A stretch of 64,000 nt of DNA from an uncultured Candidatus Saccharibacteria bacterium (GTDB lineage Bacteria; Patescibacteriota; Minisyncoccia; Phycocordibacterales; UBA9973), in NCBI GenBank assembly GCA_964423445.1, contig CAYREQ010000001.1, positions 129,732-193,731 on the forward strand. Reading direction: 5' to 3'. Positions within the stretch are counted from its first letter, which is position 1. Every line of letters begins with the position of its first letter. The translations under genes and the position numbers were made by a program. The notes under the pieces are model-generated. The model did not search any database. It was not told the DNA's origin and saw only the letters and a program-made list of their open reading frames with translations. Shown here one piece after another: positions 31,602 through 52,390 of this stretch.

Positions 31602-32441
31602 TTAGTCTATTTTTCTCTTGCCTTTTAGGTCTTTTAGGTATGCTATCAATAGAAAACTAATGATTACCAGTAGTGACCAAGAGCTAACTTTGTGAAAAGA
31701 TACAGCCGACCAAGCTGTGATTTGATTTGGGTATTGCCATGCTTTGGTAAATGTACCTATATTTTCGGCAATCCATATAAAAAATGCTATCAATACAAAA
31801 CCCAATACTAGGGGAATTTTTCTCGCTATATTTGTGACTGTAAAAATTATCTTTGTTCGCCAATATAAAATTAATATTATTAAAAACAGAAACCATCTAA
31901 AATCATAGATAAAATGATTTGTGAAAAAATTTACATAAATTAATATTGCTACAAAAATAGAATGTGTGTACGATGGCATACTTTCCAATTTTAGTTTTAA
32001 AATTCTCCAAGCTTGAGCTATGTAGCTACCGATAGATGCATACATAAAGCCACTATAAAGAGGCACATTTGCAATATGGAAAAATCCGACTTCAGGATAA
32101 GTCCAAGAGCCTATGCTGGGGTGTGTCTTGTAAAGCTCAAGCACAAGACCAATAATATGAAACAATACTATCGTCTTTGCTTCGTCTACTGTCTCTACCT
32201 TTGTCGCAATTAATATAATTTGTATCAATACAGCTAAAACAAAAAGCAGGTCTGCCCTACCGATAAATGAAAAATGAATATAGTTTGTAACTATCAGTAG
32301 AAACAAAAAAGACCCAGCAAAGATAGAGGCTCGGGCTTCTTTTAAGGTAAAGAAAAATAATTCTTTTATATAAAACTTAAACTTATCCATATTCGCTATT
32401 ACTATATCACATGGTGAAGTAAGTATACTTATCTCACACAA
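31602..32441 (-). CDS. hypothetical polytopic membrane protein
   Basis: 279 aa with about 8 hydrophobic helices. No motif recognised. Confidence 0.5.
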   Translation of the reverse strand: MCEISILTSPCDIVIANMDKFKFYIKELFFFTLKEARASIFAGSFLFLLIVTNYIHFSFIGRADLLFVLAVLIQIILIATKVETVDEAKTIVLFHIIGLVLELYKTHPSIGSWTYPEVGFFHIANVPLYSGFMYASIGSYIAQAWRILKLKLESMPSYTHSIFVAILIYVNFFTNHFIYDFRWFLFLIILILYWRTKIIFTVTNIARKIPLVLGFVLIAFFIWIAENIGTFTKAWQYPNQITAWSAVSFHKVSSWSLLVIISFLLIAYLKDLKGKRKID

Positions 32442-32522: not shown

Positions 32523-32795
32523 ATGTTAATGTTGAAAGAAAAAGGTGGTGGTGTATGTAATATATACGACCAGGAAAGTGGCATTATGCTTTTATGCGAG
32601 ACAGTCGAAGAAGACTTTGACTTAAACAGCCGGATCTTAAAGGTCCAGCAAGTCTTGCAAAATAGGATAGCCCCATACAAAACCGCGGACATGCGAAAAC
32701 CTGAGGCAGTCATCATATCTGACACTTCAGTATTCTCGATCACTCACGTAGACGACAACTTTTGGGAAATTTTACCCGACACAGTCTTAACATAG
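32523..32795 (+). CDS. hypothetical small protein
   Basis: AAGGAG Shine-Dalgarno at 32504-32509 and an intrinsic terminator immediately after the stop. Preferred over the overlapping antisense ORF 32489..32743. Confidence 0.4.
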   Translation: MLMLKEKGGGVCNIYDQESGIMLLCETVEEDFDLNSRILKVQQVLQNRIAPYKTADMRKPEAVIISDTSVFSITHVDDNFWEILPDTVLT

Positions 32796-32871: not shown

Positions 32872-33915
32872 ATGAATAATATTGTATGGATAATTTTAGG
32901 AATAATAGCTGGAGTAGCTGTGGCTTACTTTATTTTTGGACGCAAGAAAGAAGATAAAAATACAGACGTGGGACTAAATCTAATACTGACACAGATAAAT
33001 GAATTATCTCGAACTGTAGACAACAAAATAGGTGAAAGCCACAAGCAAGTACGCGAGAGTTTGCAATTTCATTCTAGTGAATCAAATAAAATTATTCGTG
33101 ATGTCACTGAGAGACTCACCCGCTTGGATGAGACAAATAAACAAGTCATATCTTTTGCTGACCAGCTACAAAGCTTGGAAAATGTTTTAAAAAATCCAAA
33201 GCAACGTGGAATCCTCGGTGAGTATTATCTGGAGACAGTTTTAAAAAATGTTCTCCCTCCTGGAAGCTATCAAATGCAGTACCCTTTTCCTGATGGCAGT
33301 ATCGTGGACGCTGTAGTTTTTGTAAAAGATAAAATCATACCAATAGATTCAAAATTCTCACTTGAAAATTATAACAAGATGGCAGAGGAGCGAGACCCTA
33401 CAGAAAAGAAACGCCTAGAGACTACTTTTGTAAATGATTTAAAAAATAGAATTACTGAGACTGCAAAATATATACAGCCATCCAAAGGCACTACAGATTT
33501 TGCCTTTATGTTTATACCGCACGAAGCTATCTATTATGATTTGCTGACAAATAAAGTAGGTGCTGGCGATGAAAATGAGAGCTTGATTCAGCGGGCTGCA
33601 GGAAAATACAAAGTCATCATCACGAGCCCTACTTCATTTTTGGCTTATTTACAGACTGTGTTACAAGGATTAAAAGCCCTACAAATAGAAGAATCTGCAA
33701 AAGAAATAATTAAAAAAGTGGAAGACCTAGGCAAACATTTAAAATCTTATGATGAATACCACAACAAGCTCGGCAATTCCTTGAGTACTGTGGTGAACCA
33801 TTACAATGCTTCAAATAAAGAATTGAAAAAAATTGATAAAGATGTGCTTCGCATATCTGGCTCTTCACCAGAGCTAGCCCTACTCGAAGTTGATAAACCA
33901 AAACAAGAAGAATAG
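32872..33915 (+). CDS. rmuC: DNA recombination protein RmuC
   Basis: N-terminal transmembrane helix, long coiled coil and a C-terminal RmuC nuclease-like domain (FAFMFIPHEAIYYDLL). Confidence 0.8.
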   Translation: MNNIVWIILGIIAGVAVAYFIFGRKKEDKNTDVGLNLILTQINELSRTVDNKIGESHKQVRESLQFHSSESNKIIRDVTERLTRLDETNKQVISFADQLQSLENVLKNPKQRGILGEYYLETVLKNVLPPGSYQMQYPFPDGSIVDAVVFVKDKIIPIDSKFSLENYNKMAEERDPTEKKRLETTFVNDLKNRITETAKYIQPSKGTTDFAFMFIPHEAIYYDLLTNKVGAGDENESLIQRAAGKYKVIITSPTSFLAYLQTVLQGLKALQIEESAKEIIKKVEDLGKHLKSYDEYHNKLGNSLSTVVNHYNASNKELKKIDKDVLRISGSSPELALLEVDKPKQEE

Positions 33916-33923
33916 GAATTAGA

Positions 33924-33961
33924 AAAGGCCGTCGACAATGTTTGTCTCCGGCCTTTTTTTG
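33924..33961 (+). terminator. Rho-independent terminator after rmuC
   Basis: AAGGCCG...CGGCCTT stem followed by a T8 run. Confidence 0.6.
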
Positions 33962-33984
33962 ATCCTCGGTTCCGCCGAGTCGGT

Positions 33985-34167
33985 TTAGTATGTTGAAGGA
34001 TCGTTCCACCTTGATGGATCGACCCGTAATGAAGCCACTGATTTGCTGGCTTCACCATCTTCTTTTTTTTCTTCGACTTCCTCTTCGGCAGTCGAAGGTT
34101 TAGGTTCGTGCTCGGGCACTTGTGCGACCGAGAGAAGAATTGAGTTTGATGTTTCTTTGATAGCCAT
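33985..34167 (-). CDS. hypothetical small acidic protein
   Basis: 60 aa with a strong AAGGAG Shine-Dalgarno 8 nt upstream. GC-rich codon usage like the gene upstream of it. Probably co-transcribed with 34183..34665. Confidence 0.4.
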   Translation of the reverse strand: MAIKETSNSILLSVAQVPEHEPKPSTAEEEVEEKKEDGEASKSVASLRVDPSRWNDPSTY

Positions 34168-34182
34168 TTCCGTATCTCCTTA

Positions 34183-34665
34183 TTAGTGAAAATTACTGTC
34201 GTGGTCAAAAATTACGGTGCCTTCTTTTTTACCGAAAGAAGCAAACCTTTTTTCTTTGTACTCCCGAACCTTCATTCGAGAACTTTTGCTTTTCTTTCGG
34301 TTTTTGATGATGTAAATCACCGAAACTAAAAGTAGCCCAAAGAAAATTGCGATTGAGGCTAGGACTCCAGAAGTCCCACTCAAAAGATAGCTTTTGTAAC
34401 CTCCTTCTTTTACTTGATAACCGGTCGCTAAGGCTGGCGACGGTGTCCTGATCGGCGTCGTTGCTGGCGCCGAAGTGTTTGGTATTTTTACATCCGCCGA
34501 CCTAGTCATCGTCGACGAAGGGGGTCTGTTGTCCAGAGCTAACCCTGGATACAGTTTTGTTTTTGGCGGCAAGACTGTATTTGAATTAGCGGACTTTTTA
34601 GTCTGTGAAAAAACTGGCGAGATTGCCAAAACTACAAAAACTAAAATAAGAAATATTTTCTTCAT
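34183..34665 (-). CDS. hypothetical type-I membrane protein (signal peptide, Pro/Ser/Thr-rich stalk, C-terminal TM anchor)
   Basis: MKKIFLILVFVVLAISPVFSQ signal peptide, low-complexity PST linker, transmembrane helix ...ASIAIFFGLLLVSVIYII and a basic tail. GGAG Shine-Dalgarno 8 nt upstream. Confidence 0.6.
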   Translation of the reverse strand: MKKIFLILVFVVLAISPVFSQTKKSANSNTVLPPKTKLYPGLALDNRPPSSTMTRSADVKIPNTSAPATTPIRTPSPALATGYQVKEGGYKSYLLSGTSGVLASIAIFFGLLLVSVIYIIKNRKKSKSSRMKVREYKEKRFASFGKKEGTVIFDHDSNFH

Positions 34666-34738
34666 TTCAATACTCCTAAACCTATGAAAAAATCAACGAA
34701 CTAGGCAGACATCACAAAAATGTGACACCATAGTTCTT

Positions 34739-34798
34739 TCTACCTAAAAGTATAGCATATTCTTACCTATTTGTCAAGGTAAATAAGCTTATTTTATA
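34739..34798 (-). promoter_or_regulatory. consensus sigma70 promoter, copy A of a 60-nt repeat
   Basis: On the minus strand it reads TTGACA, a 17-nt spacer, then TATACT. The -35 is at 34772-34777 and the -10 at 34749-34754 (plus-strand coordinates). It is flanked by an AT-rich UP-like segment and is 56/60 identical to 36153-36212. Confidence 0.65.
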
Positions 34799-34825
34799 AG
34801 GTTTTTTTGTATAAAAATAGAAAAT

Positions 34826-34852
34826 GGCCGGAACTCATAGAGCCCGGCCAGA
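34826..34852 (-). terminator. Rho-independent terminator of the 388-aa gene
   Basis: GGCCGG...CCGGCC stem, then a T-rich tract on the minus strand. A second GCTCGAG...CTCGAGC hairpin lies at 34880-34900. Confidence 0.55.
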
Positions 34853-34909
34853 TTGATAATTTATTGAGTTTATCTCTCATGCTCGAGTAACGCTCGAGCG
34901 TCGTTTGTT

Positions 34910-36076
34910 TTAGAATCCTTCAGATAATCTTCGGGAATCTTTTTGATACCTAGCAGCCCGATGTCCGCCAGATTGTGCGTAGTGGTCGTAATCTTCGTGA
35001 TCAGAAACCGTTTCGGTTGGTTTCGTGACCACAGAACTTACTACCTCTACTGTCGGCGGCGCGATGCTGACTGGAATCGTATCTTTAGAAGAAAATTTAT
35101 CCTCCGTTAGATTGAGGATGTGTTTTCCTCGGCATTCCTCGTCGGAAACGACCGGTTTGTCTTCGATGAAAACAAACCCTTTGTATGTGTCCCCCGAGTG
35201 AACCGGATTCATGCAGGCCTGAAGGGTCTGCAAGACTTCTTCTGTCCCATCCGGAAATCGATATCGGGCTTGATAAGCTCGAATACCGGGCTCCGGAATA
35301 CGACGAGGCTTCATGGTGGTACCCAAGTAGCCGACCAACCCTTCACCAGAGATAGTCCCGACTTGGATCGGTCCGATACGCCGGATGTCAAAGGTGAACC
35401 CTTCGAGATTAGGATTTCTTTCTCTGTAGAGAGAGCTCGCCCTCTGGTCGAAAAATTTTTCCAGTCTTCTGGTCTCGACCGGTTCGATGCCGCCAGCAAC
35501 ATAAGGCTTGCCTGATGTTATCGGATCAAGTCTGAGCTCGCGATCTTCCCAGCTCTCTTCTTCGTCTTCGTCACTAAAGTCGGGATGCCAATTTCTCGGA
35601 TGCGAGAAAGAAAGCAAAGCTCTCCAGATAAGAAAAACGAGGAATAGTGCGATGACGATGTACGGCGCCAACCAGCCGTAGTCCTTCCACAACATTGCTG
35701 TCGTGTAATTTTCCGGACCGGCTGGAAGTGTCGTAACCAATGGTGGTTTACCCTTCAACGCCGGCTCCGTGGATTCGGTGGAAGCTGTGGGTTCTGTCGT
35801 GGGTGTATTGTATGCCTTCGCATACTCACGCCCCCAGATACCGCGAGTGTCCCCGACTTCGAGTCGGTCGATCGTACCGTCCGGAAGACGGTAACTATCG
35901 CCGGCTTTCATTCGCTTGAAATCGACGTTCGGGTTTAACTTCACGACCTTCGCCATGAAGTTTCCAAAGTCTCTGTGCGACATGATTCCGAAATACAAAT
36001 TTGCCGATACCGGTGTGGTAGCTGTTAACGTTAACAGCATCACCAGTACAAAAATACTAACGAATGTTTTTTTCAT
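34910..36076 (-). CDS. hypothetical single-pass membrane protein (signal peptide, Pro/Thr-rich extracellular stalk, TM, ~230-aa cytoplasmic domain)
   Basis: 388 aa. MKKTFVSIFVLVMLLTLTATTPVSA signal peptide, TPTTEPTASTESTEP linker and a central transmembrane helix WLAPYIVIALFLVFLIW. The coding sequence is visibly GC-rich relative to the rest of the window. Confidence 0.65.
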   Translation of the reverse strand: MKKTFVSIFVLVMLLTLTATTPVSANLYFGIMSHRDFGNFMAKVVKLNPNVDFKRMKAGDSYRLPDGTIDRLEVGDTRGIWGREYAKAYNTPTTEPTASTESTEPALKGKPPLVTTLPAGPENYTTAMLWKDYGWLAPYIVIALFLVFLIWRALLSFSHPRNWHPDFSDEDEEESWEDRELRLDPITSGKPYVAGGIEPVETRRLEKFFDQRASSLYRERNPNLEGFTFDIRRIGPIQVGTISGEGLVGYLGTTMKPRRIPEPGIRAYQARYRFPDGTEEVLQTLQACMNPVHSGDTYKGFVFIEDKPVVSDEECRGKHILNLTEDKFSSKDTIPVSIAPPTVEVVSSVVTKPTETVSDHEDYDHYAQSGGHRAARYQKDSRRLSEGF

Positions 36077-36152
36077 TTCTTTCCTTTCCTATTCTTTTTT
36101 CGAAAAACTTCAGAAATTTAAATGAGCGAAAAAACACGCCTTCATTAAATCA

Positions 36153-36212
36153 TCTACCTAATAGTATAGCATATTATTACCCATTTGTCAAGGTAAATAA
36201 CCTTATTTTATA
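36153..36212 (-). promoter_or_regulatory. consensus sigma70 promoter, copy B of a 60-nt repeat
   Basis: TTGACA, 17 nt, TATACT on the minus strand. The -35 is at 36186-36191 and the -10 at 36163-36168. It drives the 388-aa gene. Confidence 0.65.
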
Positions 36213-36267
36213 TAGCTATATTCGTTTTATTGGAATTTTTTATTAAAAATGTTATATTGCCTCGATA

Positions 36268-36334
36268 GGCCCTATCGTCCCTCGGCCATAGCCAGTAGGC
36301 TCTGTCCTACGGGCGAGGCTAACGGTTAGGACAT
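36268..36334 (+). repeat. 27-nt copy of the tRNA-Glu 5' end, split by a 40-nt insert with CCTCG/CGAGG inverted termini
   Basis: Positions 36268-36279 plus 36320-36334 reproduce tRNA-Glu nt 1-27 exactly. The insert 36280-36319 is cctcggccatagccagtaggctctgtcctacgggcgaggc. Confidence 0.7.
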
Positions 36335-36337
36335 TTT

Positions 36338-36592
36338 ATGCATACAGTTTATGTATTAAAAAGTTTAGTAGATAATAATTTATACATAGGGTGTACTTCT
36401 GATTTAAAAAGTAGGCTGAAGTATCACAACGAAGGTAAAGTAAAATCTACAAAGCATCGTAGGCCTTTAGAATTATTATATAAAGAAAATTATGATAACA
36501 TCTATGAGGCTTTCAAAGTAGAAAGATATTATAAAAGTGCAAAAGGAAAACGTGATTTAAAAAATAAAATGGCCCTATCGTCTAACGGTTAG
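36338..36592 (+). CDS. GIY-YIG nuclease family protein (stand-alone, YhbQ-like)
   Basis: YVLKS...NLYIGCTSDLKSRLKYHNEG GIY-YIG motif, followed by conserved R/E/N positions. 84 aa. The last 22 nt overlap the 5' end of tRNA-Glu. Confidence 0.75.
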   Translation: MHTVYVLKSLVDNNLYIGCTSDLKSRLKYHNEGKVKSTKHRRPLELLYKENYDNIYEAFKVERYYKSAKGKRDLKNKMALSSNG

Positions 36593-36642
36593 GACATCGC
36601 CTTCTCAAGGCGGTAATCAGGGTTCGATTCCCTGTAGGGTCA
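36571..36642 (+). tRNA. tRNA-Glu (anticodon CTC)
   Basis: GGCCCTATCGTCTAACGGTTAGGACATCGCCTTCTCAAGGCGGTAATCAGGGTTCGATTCCCTGTAGGGTCA. Glu-type D-loop, anticodon loop TTCTCAA, TTCGATTCC T-loop. Confidence 0.8.
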
Positions 36643-36656
36643 CAAAGCACTAATAA

Positions 36657-36812: not shown

Positions 36813-37001
36813 TTATTTCTCCAGTTCCTCTTGAGTTTCTTTCTTAGCTTCCATCTTATAAGTTTCAAGAAGCGTAATAAGTCCACAGATTATTAGAAAA
36901 ACAACCAGATAAGTAATCCAAGAACTTATACCTTTAAATGTACGTCCAGCCAACACTCCAACCCCGAGACTGAACATAATGTAACCTAAATATTTTTGCA
37001 T
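36813..37001 (-). CDS. hypothetical small membrane protein (2 TM)
   Basis: 62 aa, two hydrophobic helices. Last gene of the six-gene minus-strand operon. Confidence 0.45.
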   Translation of the reverse strand: MQKYLGYIMFSLGVGVLAGRTFKGISSWITYLVVFLIICGLITLLETYKMEAKKETQEELEK

Positions 37002-37002
37002 A

Positions 37003-37704
37003 TTATTTTTCTTTATTTAAATCAGAGTATTCTTCTATTATGTTATTAGCATCTGTTAACTTTTCAAAAAAGTTAGTGCATTGCATGGGAACATTTTGGA
37101 TGGAAGTAATTTTTGCTTTCCTATCTAAGGTTTCTTGAGAACAATCTATGCTTTCGTAATCATAATCATATAAACATGACGCTCTTGGACTCACTGGAGT
37201 ATATGTCAAACAATTATCATAATCCGCTTTTACTTTTCCTTTTAATAAATTACAGCTTCTAAGTTCATCTTTGTAGTTTTTATCAATCGTTGGTTGGATA
37301 CACGTTTTAAATTTGGCTTTTAAATCATCTAGGCTTGAAATAGCTTGGTCGTATTTTTGTTTTAATTGTTCCTTTTGTAAATTTTCTTGTTTCGTTTGTA
37401 TTAAATAATAAATACCAGTTACTAAAGCAATAACTATAGCTAGAGTTAATAATGCTTTAATAACTTTTTTTCTAGGAGGTATGATATTTGAAATTTTGTG
37501 CTTATTTATACTATCTTCAAATTTTATATTGTTATTATGCCGCCATCCTATTGTGTAAAATATTAGTACCGCGGGAATTAAAATAGAGAGAAATGTAGCA
37601 AAACTTGAGTAATCTGACTGGTCCAAAGAAGCAAAAAATCCAATTATTCCAAAAATCCATATAGATATCAATTGACCTCTTGTAATTTTATAAATGTTTT
37701 TCAT
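37003..37704 (-). CDS. hypothetical membrane protein with Cys-rich C-terminal domain
   Basis: 233 aa. Three N-terminal transmembrane helices, a coiled-coil segment, then 8 Cys in about 90 aa (CIQPT...CNLL...CLTY...CLYDYDYESIDC...CTNF). Confidence 0.5.
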   Translation of the reverse strand: MKNIYKITRGQLISIWIFGIIGFFASLDQSDYSSFATFLSILIPAVLIFYTIGWRHNNNIKFEDSINKHKISNIIPPRKKVIKALLTLAIVIALVTGIYYLIQTKQENLQKEQLKQKYDQAISSLDDLKAKFKTCIQPTIDKNYKDELRSCNLLKGKVKADYDNCLTYTPVSPRASCLYDYDYESIDCSQETLDRKAKITSIQNVPMQCTNFFEKLTDANNIIEEYSDLNKEK

Positions 37705-37707
37705 AAA

Positions 37708-38121
37708 TTATTGATTATTTTTAATTCTAAATTCTAACCAACTATCAGAACACTCTTTCAAGGATTTAAGTACTGTTTCTTTGAGTTCTTGATTTTCTAA
37801 CTTCATATCTAAGCTTTTTTTCATTCTCTGTAAAGCCTCTTCATCTGAAATTTTATCACACGATTCAACCTTGCCATTTGATATTTTTGTAAAATAACCT
37901 ATTAAATATGCCCCCATGGTTTCCCTTATATTTTCAGCCATTATTTTATCGCCAGAATCAAAGAAGTATTTTGTAATTATATTTAATGCTTCTTCTAGCT
38001 TATTAACTGGATGTGGTAAAAAAGATTCTGGAACTATTACAAAGACACGACTCATTTTATCTGCAATTTCTTGATAATTCTGCCAATCTTTAAAAATTTT
38101 CTCAGCTTCTTTAAATTCCAT
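37708..38121 (-). CDS. hypothetical cytoplasmic protein
   Basis: 137 aa, no transmembrane helix. The reading frame is tightly packed within the operon. Confidence 0.45.
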   Translation of the reverse strand: MEFKEAEKIFKDWQNYQEIADKMSRVFVIVPESFLPHPVNKLEEALNIITKYFFDSGDKIMAENIRETMGAYLIGYFTKISNGKVESCDKISDEEALQRMKKSLDMKLENQELKETVLKSLKECSDSWLEFRIKNNQ

Positions 38122-38126
38122 ATATT

Positions 38127-38339
38127 TTATTTATTTAAACCTTTTGCCCTAATGCATAGATTATAAAATACTTCTATACCGTCACGCTCTAAATTAGGAT
38201 TTTCCTTTATAATATTACTAATTTTCCGACTACATGACGAATAAATTTTAGATACCCTAATTTCATACCAATAAAAAACAAAACCTAAAATCACCAAGGC
38301 AATTAAAATTATATATTTATATTCTTTAAGTTTTTGCAT
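38127..38339 (-). CDS. hypothetical small membrane protein (1 TM)
   Basis: 70 aa with an N-terminal transmembrane helix. The 6-nt gap to the upstream gene suggests translational coupling. Confidence 0.4.
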   Translation of the reverse strand: MQKLKEYKYIILIALVILGFVFYWYEIRVSKIYSSCSRKISNIIKENPNLERDGIEVFYNLCIRAKGLNK

Positions 38340-38345
38340 AAAAAA

Positions 38346-38765
38346 TTAACGTGTATTGTAATGTGCATCTGTTACTGAAACAAGGTAGAAAATCCTTTTA
38401 AGTGTATAAAAGAAAATTCTTCCCTTATCTGTATCGATGAATAATTCCCTGACTTCTACGTCATCATGCAATCCTTTATACAGCTTTAAGTAATCACCCT
38501 TAGGAATAATTGAAGAAGATTTAAAATTTCCCAAATCTGTATCCTCAAAAATTCCACAGCCAACTTTTTTAATTAATCTTAATGCTTTTAATGCTCTTTT
38601 TTTCTCTAGGTTGTCTATTCCACATTCTTTTTCATTGTATTTTGCAAATGAAATTAAAAAAGGTGATGACTCAGGGTCATCCTCTTGTTGAGAAAGTTGA
38701 GCAATTTGTTCAGGAATTACTGAATCATTTAATGGCAACTCACTTGCTCCTTCTGGAATAGACAT
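38346..38765 (-). CDS. hypothetical protein, candidate toxin partner of the Panacea-domain protein
   Basis: 139 aa. The C-terminal beta-rich segment GRIFFYTLKRIFYLVSVTDAHY is loosely RelE/ParE-like. It lies 10 nt downstream of the Panacea gene. Confidence 0.4.
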   Translation of the reverse strand: MSIPEGASELPLNDSVIPEQIAQLSQQEDDPESSPFLISFAKYNEKECGIDNLEKKRALKALRLIKKVGCGIFEDTDLGNFKSSSIIPKGDYLKLYKGLHDDVEVRELFIDTDKGRIFFYTLKRIFYLVSVTDAHYNTR

Positions 38766-38775
38766 AGATTCAGAC

Positions 38776-39267
38776 CTAGGCTTTTAATTCCTTAAGCTTA
38801 GAGGAATAAAATTCTTTCATGGATTCCAAAGTTATCTCATTTTCAGAAATTTCATCAACTGAAAGTCCTTCTCTTGCGTCTTGCCAAGGAGATTCTGAAT
38901 GGGTAAGTGCTTCAAGATAAGAAGAATCGTATTTACCATAAACATCCCACACTTGGTCTAAAATTTTTCTGTCTTCCTCAGTTATTAAATTAATAAGGGC
39001 TGAGTCAGGCTCTTTTTTTATTGCATTGAAACTAAATTCTTTATATCTATCGTATAAGCTTTTTATTGCAGGTCCATGAACCCATGCTTCAATTTTTTCA
39101 TCAAAAATCGGACGTTTATTTATGACCAAAGACCATGCTTGAGCATAGTAAACAAGTTTTTGAATTTTCTTATTTGTAATAACCTTTCTGGGAGATGATA
39201 GGTTAGACTTTTGAATGAAGAACTCTGCTATTGAGCTAGCAGGGGTCTTTACTGCTAATTTATTCAT
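38776..39267 (-). CDS. Panacea-domain (DUF4065, SocA-like) protein, putative antitoxin
   Basis: KIQKLVYYAQAWSLVINKRPIFDEKIEAWVHGPAIKSLYDRY matches the Panacea consensus (KLxYYAQ..W....G.P.F.E.IEAW..GPV...LY). Confidence 0.6.
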   Translation of the reverse strand: MNKLAVKTPASSIAEFFIQKSNLSSPRKVITNKKIQKLVYYAQAWSLVINKRPIFDEKIEAWVHGPAIKSLYDRYKEFSFNAIKKEPDSALINLITEEDRKILDQVWDVYGKYDSSYLEALTHSESPWQDAREGLSVDEISENEITLESMKEFYSSKLKELKA

Positions 39268-52085: not shown

Positions 52086-52094
52086 ATGGTCTAT

Positions 52095-52328
52095 CTAAAG
52101 ACCAAGCAATTGGGCTATTTTAGGTTGATTAAAGCCAACAGTGAGCTCATCTCCAATGACGATAACAGGGACGCCCATCTGTCCACTCTTTTCTATCATT
52201 TCTTTCCTTTTTTCCAAATCACTTGCAACATTGTGTTCTGTATATGCTATATTCTTTTCTTTAAAAAACTCTTTGGCCATATGACAAAAATGGCATGTAG
52301 GTGTCGAATAAATTGTTACTTGTTGCAT
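52095..52328 (-). CDS. glutaredoxin-like protein (NrdH/Grx family)
   Basis: 77 aa with a CHFC active site in YSTPTCHFCHMAKEFF and a thioredoxin fold. Confidence 0.75.
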   Translation of the reverse strand: MQQVTIYSTPTCHFCHMAKEFFKEKNIAYTEHNVASDLEKRKEMIEKSGQMGVPVIVIGDELTVGFNQPKIAQLLGL

Positions 52329-52390
52329 ATTTTTATATTTTTTATCTTTTAATATCTTAATTATATCACACTTGTGAACTTCTCAAAATG

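Follow-up and report, generated by a model that had tools for sequence, protein, structure and literature searches.

Genomic islands associated with tRNA genes usually integrate at the 3' end of the tRNA gene. Here we describe a gene islet of about 2.3 kb (approximately positions 33916-36229) that also adjoins a tRNA gene, in a stretch of 64,000 nt (the window, overall GC content 0.353) from an uncultured Candidatus Saccharibacteria bacterium (assembly GCA_964423445.1, contig CAYREQ010000001.1, positions 129,732 to 193,731 of the forward strand), an AT-rich, ultra-small bacterium of the Candidate Phyla Radiation (CPR, Patescibacteria) with a Paceibacterota/Nomurabacteria-like genome. The islet is located between the terminator of rmuC and the promoter of the tRNA-Glu(CTC) gene and contains three open reading frames (ORFs), the products of which are denoted FAM (388 aa), p160 (160 aa), and p60 (60 aa); L-numbers denote the loci of relatives. 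The tRNA adjacency, the composition, the presence or absence among relatives, and the putative surface proteins encoded are features shared with tRNA-adjacent genomic islands. However, with only 2.3 kb, the islet lacks an integrase, att repeats, and mobility genes, and it is positioned upstream of the tRNA, between the tRNA promoter and the neighboring terminator. Furthermore, its compositional anomaly is a property of a gene family and not of transfer alone. Our reading of the locus, to which we assign a probability of roughly 0.6, is that the islet is an old, derived insertion, that the GC-richness of FAM is a trait of its family, that p160 and p60 are parts of one split gene, and that the products are envelope proteins.

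Three further systems invite comparison. TsaP-type LysM proteins (PDB 6ve2 chain O, 3jc8) and YneA-like LysM proteins share with most members of the FAM family a signal peptide followed by LysM, and thereby the logic of an outward-facing, glycan-binding module on a membrane-tethered protein. In contrast to these envelope proteins, to which its match is limited to the N-terminal ~100 residues, the FAM family is defined by a conserved cytoplasmic domain of ~140 aa. At the transcript level, the leaders of E. coli ompA and B. subtilis aprE exemplify long-lived mRNAs of envelope proteins that are stabilized by a 5' stem-loop. The FAM gene is similar in having a strong promoter, a stem-loop near the 5' end of the leader, a strong terminator, and a probable envelope product, a resemblance of design only. 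To our knowledge, mRNAs of the ompA/aprE type have not been described as GC-enriched over their entire coding body. Finally, recombination has been linked to raised GC content at third codon positions (GC3) in bacteria (PMC4450053). As in the core genes whose GC3 elevation the hypothesis of GC-biased gene conversion addresses (PMC4450053), the GC3 of FAM lies above the mutational equilibrium, uniformly over codons and in a subset of genes, but the effect is far larger (+0.15 to +0.40 GC3), concerns a single gene with sharp borders, and is conserved throughout the phylum.

Base composition of the islet genes

The three ORFs of the islet are the following:

34910-36076, minus strand: FAM, 388 aa, putative type-I membrane protein of a family without a name in Patescibacteria (GC 0.497, GC3 0.524)
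34183-34665, minus strand: p160, 160 aa, putative small type-I-like membrane protein (GC 0.416, GC3 0.416)
33985-34167, minus strand: p60, 60 aa, acidic, in the same frame as p160 (GC 0.454, GC3 0.377)

An earlier note on this DNA, made from the sequence alone, had described the coding region as richer in G + C than its flanks (the string quoted there starts at 35761), and had proposed sliding-window GC and codon-usage plots as a check. Both analyses bear out the description. The region 33985-36076 (2,092 nt) has a GC content of 0.456, corresponding to z = 5.1 relative to 1,155 non-overlapping windows of the same size (mean 0.350 ± 0.021), and lies outside the normal range of the window, where the maximum elsewhere is 0.399. 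The background GC3 is 0.276 ± 0.064 in 68 ORFs of at least 60 aa and 0.265 ± 0.039 in 55 other ORFs of at least 100 aa. For FAM, background synonymous usage would yield a GC3 of 0.257, far below the 0.526 observed; thus, the excess is synonymous and not an amino-acid effect. GC3 is elevated at all 18 degenerate amino acids, for 14 of them by more than 0.1, and G and C at third positions rise about equally. For Pro, for example, CCG accounts for 16 of 28 codons in FAM versus 5% in the background. Expression-linked codon bias was rejected as an explanation: besides the islet genes and a neighboring 90-aa ORF, only one ORF in the window has a GC3 above 0.36, namely, an uncharacterized 88-aa ORF (52086-52352, GC3 0.46).

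High GC content as a trait of the FAM family

We scored 19 loci from about ten distinct contexts (the window, L002, L004, L006, L011, L012, L014, L015, L017, L018, and L019-L026). FAM is the GC-richest gene in all 19, over background GC contents from 0.35 to 0.57. Across the hosts, its GC content is about 0.49-0.68, with an excess over the neighboring genes of 0.10-0.23; for GC3, the excess is 0.06-0.41 and is smallest in L025 and L026, each with only two neighboring genes. Two sets of syntenic loci are particularly informative. In a Zambryskibacteria-type trio (L004, L014, L017), the arrangement extends from gyrA, with a lactamase_B_3 gene in L014 and L017, to FAM; the S1 gene comes next in L004 and L014, and the contig of L017 ends soon after FAM. 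In a pair (L011, L018), FAM is found among the VTT, msrB, and msrA genes. In the trio and the pair, both the flanks and FAM have reached 87-100% of simulated synonymous saturation, and yet the GC3 of FAM is 0.68-0.77 compared to 0.26-0.68 in the flanking genes that were compared. A donor signature cannot outlast such synonymous turnover, and therefore a persistent, gene-specific force is needed. Conserved alignment columns of FAM have the same GC3 (0.676) as variable ones (0.666). No excess is seen outside the coding sequence and the terminator: over the 100-200 nt upstream, the GC content does not rise above background, and the adjacent genes show no such shift. These results indicate that FAM sits at a gene-specific, coding-confined, and persistently high GC composition, and that the GC-richness seen in the window is mainly a family trait, not a fading donor signature. 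The composition shift, in which the earlier note saw a hint of horizontal acquisition, is thus not a reliable sign of foreign origin here, FAM being the GC-richest gene at every locus, including those of saturated syntenic lineages. Compositional outliers are routinely read as recent transfers, and programs that call genomic islands by composition would flag FAM repeatedly for the wrong reason.

An alternative that we consider unlikely is a plain transfer without amelioration, with the islet originating from a donor of higher GC content and the excess representing a decaying donor signature. Such an origin would be consistent with the presence/absence polymorphism at the rmuC/tRNA-Glu site described below, with a GC3 far from the background in all codon classes, and with a different GC-rich ORF of 68 aa (GC3 0.77) at the same site in L029 and L030. 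In addition, the GC3 of FAM is 0.49-0.52 in the window clade versus 0.68-0.83 in most other lineages, as partial amelioration predicts. However, neither the top rank of the family in about ten contexts, saturated syntenic lineages included, nor the AT-rich promoters, leaders, and intergenic DNA of the islet (GC 0.344 at 34666-34909 and 0.254 at 36077-36261) would be expected from this scenario. A high-GC donor is expected to give the Arg codons CGC and CGG, whereas those in the FAM gene of the window stay AGA, CGA, and CGT.

Near FAM, other small membrane or secreted genes of relatives are also outliers in GC and GC3 (L012 5767-6135; L018 101-583; L014 1787-2368 and 9433-9855). For example, a 122-aa membrane protein in L012 has a GC3 of 0.72 where the genome median is 0.31. 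Envelope genes may be GC-enriched more generally in such genomes.

Possible causes of the persistent GC excess

The force acting on FAM would be selection on the transcript for a compact, nuclease-resistant, and long-lived mRNA. We advance selection for an mRNA that is stable and structured, and that encodes an abundant envelope protein, only tentatively as this force, at clearly less than even odds. The broader proposal is that nucleic-acid selection holds FAM at high GC as a functional trait, conserved phylum-wide and independent of genome GC, and that the cytoplasmic domain of FAM is a new fold; we regard this combination as conceivable but, on balance, doubtful to the same degree. A long-lived mRNA would agree with an envelope protein that is produced in abundance from a gene with a strong promoter, a 5' stem-loop, a structured GC-rich body, and a strong terminator. 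Indeed, consensus promoters with a TG extension and leader stem-loops are present on FAM across lineages, and the FAM leaders of L011 and L012 are predicted to fold into the same hairpin with compensatory changes. When the folding of FAM coding sequences was compared with block-wise synonymous shuffles, z-scores from −2.0 to −6.1 (mean −3.7) were obtained, against a mean of −1.9 for six neighboring genes as a control. The difference is suggestive of stronger local folding of the FAM mRNA. Whole-gene synonymous shuffling was discarded as evidence for folding because its large z-scores partly reflect regional composition; block-wise shuffles and neighbor controls shrank the difference.

In three unrelated contexts, the FAM leaders (L011 9620-9685, L012 9330-9394, L018 3690-3744) share a stem-loop with an AGCUCGYCCY...RGGRYUAG core. 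Between L011 and L012, the inner stem of this hairpin carries two compensatory double changes, and the outer stems are wholly different yet paired.

Several other explanations for the GC excess were rejected. The equal GC3 at conserved and variable columns argues against selection for translational accuracy. A rare-codon strategy does not account for the shift, which goes toward GC even where GC-ending codons are already common (L006). The synonymous divergence (dS) of FAM, which is not below that of the flanks, speaks against a gene that overlaps FAM or is antisense to it, and against strong constraint on individual sites.

Selection for mRNA stability is favored over GC-biased gene conversion, the main alternative for a persistent force. 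According to the latter, which appears rather improbable, recombination is concentrated in FAM and other envelope genes, where biased repair of heteroduplexes raises GC. The rise in GC3 does not differ between amino acids or between conserved and variable columns, with G and C at third positions increasing about equally; the islet proteins evolve fast; a genome-specific indel in both promoter copies (see below) hints at conversion; and recombining genes of bacteria have higher GC3 (PMC4450053). All these features would agree with gene conversion. However, conversion tracts should ignore ORF borders, and the excess does not extend past the coding sequence. Should the cause prove to be either transcript-level selection or a repair bias that acts locally, FAM would offer a clean natural system for the study of gene-specific equilibria of base composition in bacteria.

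Presence, age, and origin of the islet

The locus was reproduced in an independent Logan assembly (L001). In a sister species (L002, L003, L009), the order is tRNA-Glu, FAM, a 170-aa p160 orthologue, a 62-aa p60 orthologue, rmuC, the 90-aa gene, and the RNase T gene; the L002 contig ends inside an uninterrupted tRNA-Glu gene that abuts the promoter region of FAM. The flanking proteins of the window are 87-96% identical to those of L002 and 52-91% identical to those of the outgroups. In L034, in which rmuC is 95% identical, a p160/p60-type gene adjoins rmuC, with a FAM-type terminator hairpin and the same promoter upstream; the contig ends there, and no FAM gene is seen on it. Relatives of rmuC are very numerous, with the source names Nomurabacteria, Paceibacterota, or Patescibacteria. 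In three outgroup lineages (L028; L031, L032, and L033; L029 and L030), none of the three islet genes is present at the locus. The empty site is represented by L028, L031, and L033, in which rmuC is followed after 84 nt, comprising a terminator hairpin and the tRNA promoter, by tRNA-Glu(CTC). In L029, 440 nt separate the two genes, and the spacer is occupied differently. The outgroups are distant, their other proteins being 52-82% identical and their synonymous sites saturated.

Between the window and L002, the dS of FAM is 0.80 and that of the flanking genes 0.60-1.26. Because the value for FAM equals that of the flanks, the islet is older than the split between the window and L002. Thus, being syntenic in L002 and absent in three outgroup lineages, the islet is shown to be a derived insertion that occurred after the split from the lineages with adjacent rmuC and tRNA-Glu, and before the window/L002 split (dS about 0.8). 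The comparison of relatives suggested in the earlier note therefore upholds one part of its claim of horizontally acquired cargo, namely, a lineage-specific insertion, as demonstrated by the empty outgroup sites, and it shows that the insertion is not recent, given the synteny in L002 and the dS equal to that of the flanks. We infer that the islet arrived by lateral transfer from another Patescibacterium; most of the detected transfers into Patescibacteria stem from other Patescibacteria (PMC12455944). No integrase or recombinase was detected in or at the edge of the islet, where FAM, p160, and p60 are the only ORFs and none has a recombinase match. A repeat scan of the window revealed no att-like flanking direct repeats.

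Differential loss, that is, an islet ancestral to the clade and precisely deleted elsewhere, is very improbable. The FAM family is widespread in Patescibacteria, and the direct repeat that contains the promoters could mediate deletions, but the tight arrangement of rmuC, terminator, promoter, and tRNA-Glu in three outgroup lineages and the unrelated loci of FAM in other lineages argue for insertion. Furthermore, besides the one of the window, only two proteins that are at least 52% identical to the window FAM were retrieved, compared to more than 100 rmuC clusters at 86% identity or more. An assembly artefact or a contaminating fragment, for which nothing was found apart from the general fact that contigs of metagenome-assembled genomes can be chimeric, is a negligible prospect, as the same junctions occur in the independent assembly L001 and in two other species from other samples (L002/L003; L034), and the sequence runs without a break from the islet into the terminator and the tRNA promoter at its flanks.

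Several points weigh against the reading of an old insertion with a GC-rich gene family shaped by selection. According to our own rough two-state estimate, ~0.4 substitutions per synonymous site and branch let a GC3 of 0.5 be the remnant of ~0.75, and, with a dS of only 0.8 since the split, partial amelioration of a transferred GC-rich copy is possible for the window clade. The nearest outgroups are saturated, so that substitutions could not be polarized. The folding excess of FAM over the controls is modest, some ordinary genes reaching a z-score of −4, and the leader hairpin of FAM in the window does not exceed shuffled sequence in stability (z = +0.67). The absence of FAM in relatives was judged on loci of 9-17 kb and a word-seeded homologue search. 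Finally, no traces of a phage, a plasmid, an integrase, or flanking repeats were found that would reveal the route of insertion.

FAM and its family

The assignments of signal peptides and transmembrane (TM) segments for FAM and p160 rest on hydropathy and sequence inspection. FAM has hydrophobic segments at residues 1-27 and 132-160; its N-terminus consists of MKK, a hydrophobic core, and VSA/N, with a putative signal peptide at residues 1-25. p160 has such segments at 1-23 and 93-123 and, behind the second, a basic tail (pI 10.3), and its N-terminus of MKK, a hydrophobic core, and VFS/Q suggests a signal peptide at residues 1-23 that precedes a Pro/Ser/Thr-rich ectodomain. Basic residues follow the TM helix in both proteins. 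Hydropathy and charge thus agree with the view, already expressed in the earlier note, that the two are membrane proteins of similar, type-I-like architecture. Paralogy of FAM and p160 was rejected (BLASTP E 0.23, with the match confined to the signal peptides).

In FAM, a diverged LysM-like ectodomain (residues ~30-90) is followed by a Pro/Thr/Ser linker, the TM helix (132-160), a conserved cytoplasmic domain with helices and β-strands (~170-310), and a disordered tail. The family consensus comprises a signal peptide, LysM, a linker, a TM helix, the highly conserved cytoplasmic domain, a Pro-rich linker, and a variable tail. The cytoplasmic motifs are DPITSG..V.GGI, GEGLVGYLG, PRRI, AYQARYRFPDGTEE, LQACMNPV, and GDTYRGFTF, and the set that defines the family (DPxTSG..V.GGI, GEGxVGY, PRRI, AYxARYRFxDxTE, LQxCMNPV..G..Y.GF.F) is present in its entirety in the FAM of the window, which matches the family profile with an E-value of 2.9e-108. 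It also conforms to the typical architecture of the family, falling within the length range of ~330-470 aa and having a hydrophobic signal at the N-terminus and one internal TM helix ahead of the conserved domain. A word-seeded search yielded 20-26 members; with an exhaustive HMMER search, the number of cluster representatives was 131 at E ≤ 1e-30 and rose to 324 at E ≤ 1e-10. The representatives are mostly 330-420 aa long, and most of the best 150 matches span the full length. In their sources they are named "hypothetical" or "LysM domain-containing", and look-ups of the clusters returned no informative names. Homologues sought among IMG/VR viral contigs, GenBank phages, and PLSDB plasmids were not found.

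The Pfam LysM model (PF01476) matches 22 of 91 family members at E ≤ 0.01. The window FAM has no Pfam match at E ≤ 0.1, LysM included; in the alignment with the family, its first LysM strand (YxVxxGDT) is missing, and the version of the window clade is diverged or truncated. The best PDB sequence match of the family profile is the TsaP-type LysM 6ve2_O (E 6e-8), restricted to the N-terminus. An AlphaFold2 (AF2) model based on an alignment of 91 sequences has pLDDT values of 91-98 across residues 170-310, and predicts two helices and a β-sheet of long hairpins for the cytoplasmic domain. Foldseek searches with two AF2 models against PDB and BFVD gave no match at E ≤ 0.001 (TM-scores ≤ 0.32), and the domain has no model in Pfam, NCBIfam, or PHROGs. 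Searches of Pfam, NCBIfam, PHROGs, and PADLOC with FAM, p160, p60, and the 90-aa ORF produced only weak noise from TM segments and coiled coils.

Judging from sequence, we propose an envelope role for the islet proteins. Outside the cell, the LysM-type ectodomain of FAM would serve as an anchor to peptidoglycan or glycan, or as a sensor of either, and the conserved cytoplasmic domain would couple it to an internal partner; p160/p60 would accompany FAM as a surface-exposed protein that evolves fast. Unannotated but found widely among Patescibacteria, and endowed with a confidently predicted domain, the FAM family is a candidate core component of the envelope in organisms whose cell-surface biology is largely unexplored. 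Families enriched in CPR bacteria are mostly unannotated membrane proteins (PMC6744442).

p160 and p60 as parts of a split gene

The earlier note had counted a small acidic protein of 60 aa as a third component. The ORF and its acidity (pI 4.6, without a hydrophobic segment) were confirmed, but its independence was not. In the window, p160 and p60 are in one frame across TAA TAA, and L002 has TAG at the same position; the junction reads ...SNFH, two stops, GDTEM... in the window and ...FVTH, one stop, EVCM... in L002. In L034, the parts corresponding to p160 and p60 form one continuous ORF of 195 aa that ends with RWND(P/I)STY, matching the conserved C-terminus RWNDPSTY of p60, the codons of which show synonymous changes between the window and L002. 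Because the two are in frame in the window and L002, and a single ORF in L034, p60 is not an independent family. Instead, p60 is the detached C-terminal cytoplasmic tail of p160, one ancestral membrane protein having been split by one or more in-frame stops. An AGGAG ribosome-binding site overlaps the stop codon of p160. p160 evolves fast, with 33% identity to the L002 orthologue and a nonsynonymous divergence (dN) of 0.73.

Transcription units and control elements

The remaining features of the islet and its boundaries are as follows:

33920-33983, no strand assigned: left boundary, conserved in L002 and L034
34666-34744, minus strand: 5' leader of p160, predicted stem-loop GUCACA/UGUGAU
34749-34798, minus strand: promoter 2, TTGACA-17-TATACT with TG extended −10 (hexamer span 34777-34749)
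34813-34901, minus strand: FAM terminator region, nearly identical in L002 and present in L034
36077-36158, minus strand: 5' leader of FAM, predicted AU-rich stem-loop
36163-36212, minus strand: promoter 1, TTGACA-17-TATACT with TG extended −10 (hexamer span 36191-36163)
36230-36643, plus strand: right boundary with the tRNA promoter, a tRNA fragment, the GIY-YIG ORF, and the intact tRNA-Glu(CTC)
36230-36258, plus strand: native tRNA-Glu promoter
36571-36643, plus strand: intact tRNA-Glu(CTC)

The islet consists of two independent minus-strand transcription units, one for FAM and one for p160 and p60, each of which has a near-identical consensus sigma-70 promoter, a palindrome, a leader of ~80 nt that contains a stem-loop, and a terminator hairpin. 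At the left boundary, a bidirectional terminator hairpin (33927-33953, GGCCG...CGGCC) with T-runs on both strands is common to rmuC (stop codon 33913-33915) and the converging p160-p60 transcript; a second hairpin is located at 33964-33983, with a terminator-like site scored at 33966-33983. The FAM terminator comprises a CTCGAG...CTCGAG hairpin directly after the stop codon (34879-34901) and a GGCCGG...CCGGCC hairpin (34826-34849) followed by a U-run. The p160 leader is ~95% conserved between the window and L002 despite a dS of 0.8, and its stem reads GUCGCG/UGCGAU in L002, including a compensatory change. The FAM leader also has a compensatory pair, with AAUGA/UCAUU in the window and AAUCA/UGAUU in L002. 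An Rfam search of the islet leaders of the window matched no family.

Both promoters match 11 of the 12 consensus positions, in addition to the TG extended −10, in keeping with the AT-rich, host-like promoters and the tRNA neighborhood (tRNA-Glu(CTC) at 36571-36643) reported in the earlier note. They are part of a 60-nt direct repeat (D1), the copies of which are 93% identical, and the promoter sequence has no further copy within the window. Immediately upstream of the −35 hexamer, promoter 2 has the 14-bp palindrome AAATAAGCTTATTT (34781-34794), and promoter 1 has the near-palindrome AAATAACCTTATTT (36195-36208) upstream of its −35 hexamer. AAATAAGCTTATTT or its GG variant precedes both −35 hexamers and has no other occurrence in the window, which makes it a candidate for an operator shared by the two units. 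The promoter copies extend over 34749-34811 and 36163-36225 in the window, and over ~97-173 and ~1470-1546 in L002. A genome-specific indel is common to both copies, with ACC-TTGACA in the window and ACCATTGACA in L002; shared by copies 1.4 kb apart, it hints at gene conversion between them.

Neighboring genes and other insertions at the junction

At the right boundary, an 84-aa GIY-YIG ORF (36338-36592, plus strand) is inserted behind nucleotide ~27 of tRNA-Glu(CTC). A 16-nt exact repeat (CTAACGGTTAGGACAT) at 36319 and 36582 marks a duplication of the tRNA 5' part, and the upstream tRNA-Glu fragment (36262-36335) carries a 40-nt GC-rich hairpin in the D-loop region. The intact tRNA downstream of the GIY-YIG ORF is presumably co-transcribed from the native promoter. 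L002 has an uninterrupted tRNA-Glu without this insertion. The GIY-YIG ORF, absent from L002, is a separate insertion, and the duplication of the tRNA 5' part belongs with it and not with the islet.

In L029 (9045-9484) and L030 (1501-1707), the spacer between rmuC and tRNA-Glu contains the 68-aa ORF (MVRIVVTGLGNGK...), which has a GC content of 0.594 and a GC3 of 0.768 in a genome with a GC content of 0.40. It has its own TTGACA/TATAAT promoter, and searches of NCBIfam and PHROGs gave no family match. Small GC-rich genes appear to have landed repeatedly at the rmuC/tRNA-Glu junction. Past the tRNA-Glu gene, an AT-rich block (36813-39267, GC 0.298) contains six small minus-strand ORFs, one of which (38776-39267) encodes a SocA/Panacea antitoxin domain; the other five match no family. 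At that position, the outgroups carry the dcw cluster (murE, PBP, rsmH, mraZ), so that the tRNA marks a break in synteny.

On the other side, two genes are located between the RNase T gene and rmuC. The acidic 90-aa ORF (32523-32795, plus strand) has a GC3 of 0.495, is 79% identical in L002 with a dN/dS of 0.16, and matches no family. The DUF817 gene (31602-32441, minus strand) is next to rmuC in L034, whereas L002 lacks it at this place. Neither gene occurs in the outgroups, in which the RNase T gene directly abuts rmuC. The product of rmuC itself (32872-33915) is ~90% identical to orthologues from genomes in which Obg, YqeY, RNase T, and MYG1 are only 52-82% identical, and more than 100 distinct clusters, formed at 90% identity, are at least 86% identical to the RmuC of the window. 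A recent transfer of rmuC was rejected because its synonymous sites are saturated, which points to unusually strong purifying selection instead. The high identity thus reflects conservation, and the outgroups are more distant than rmuC suggests.

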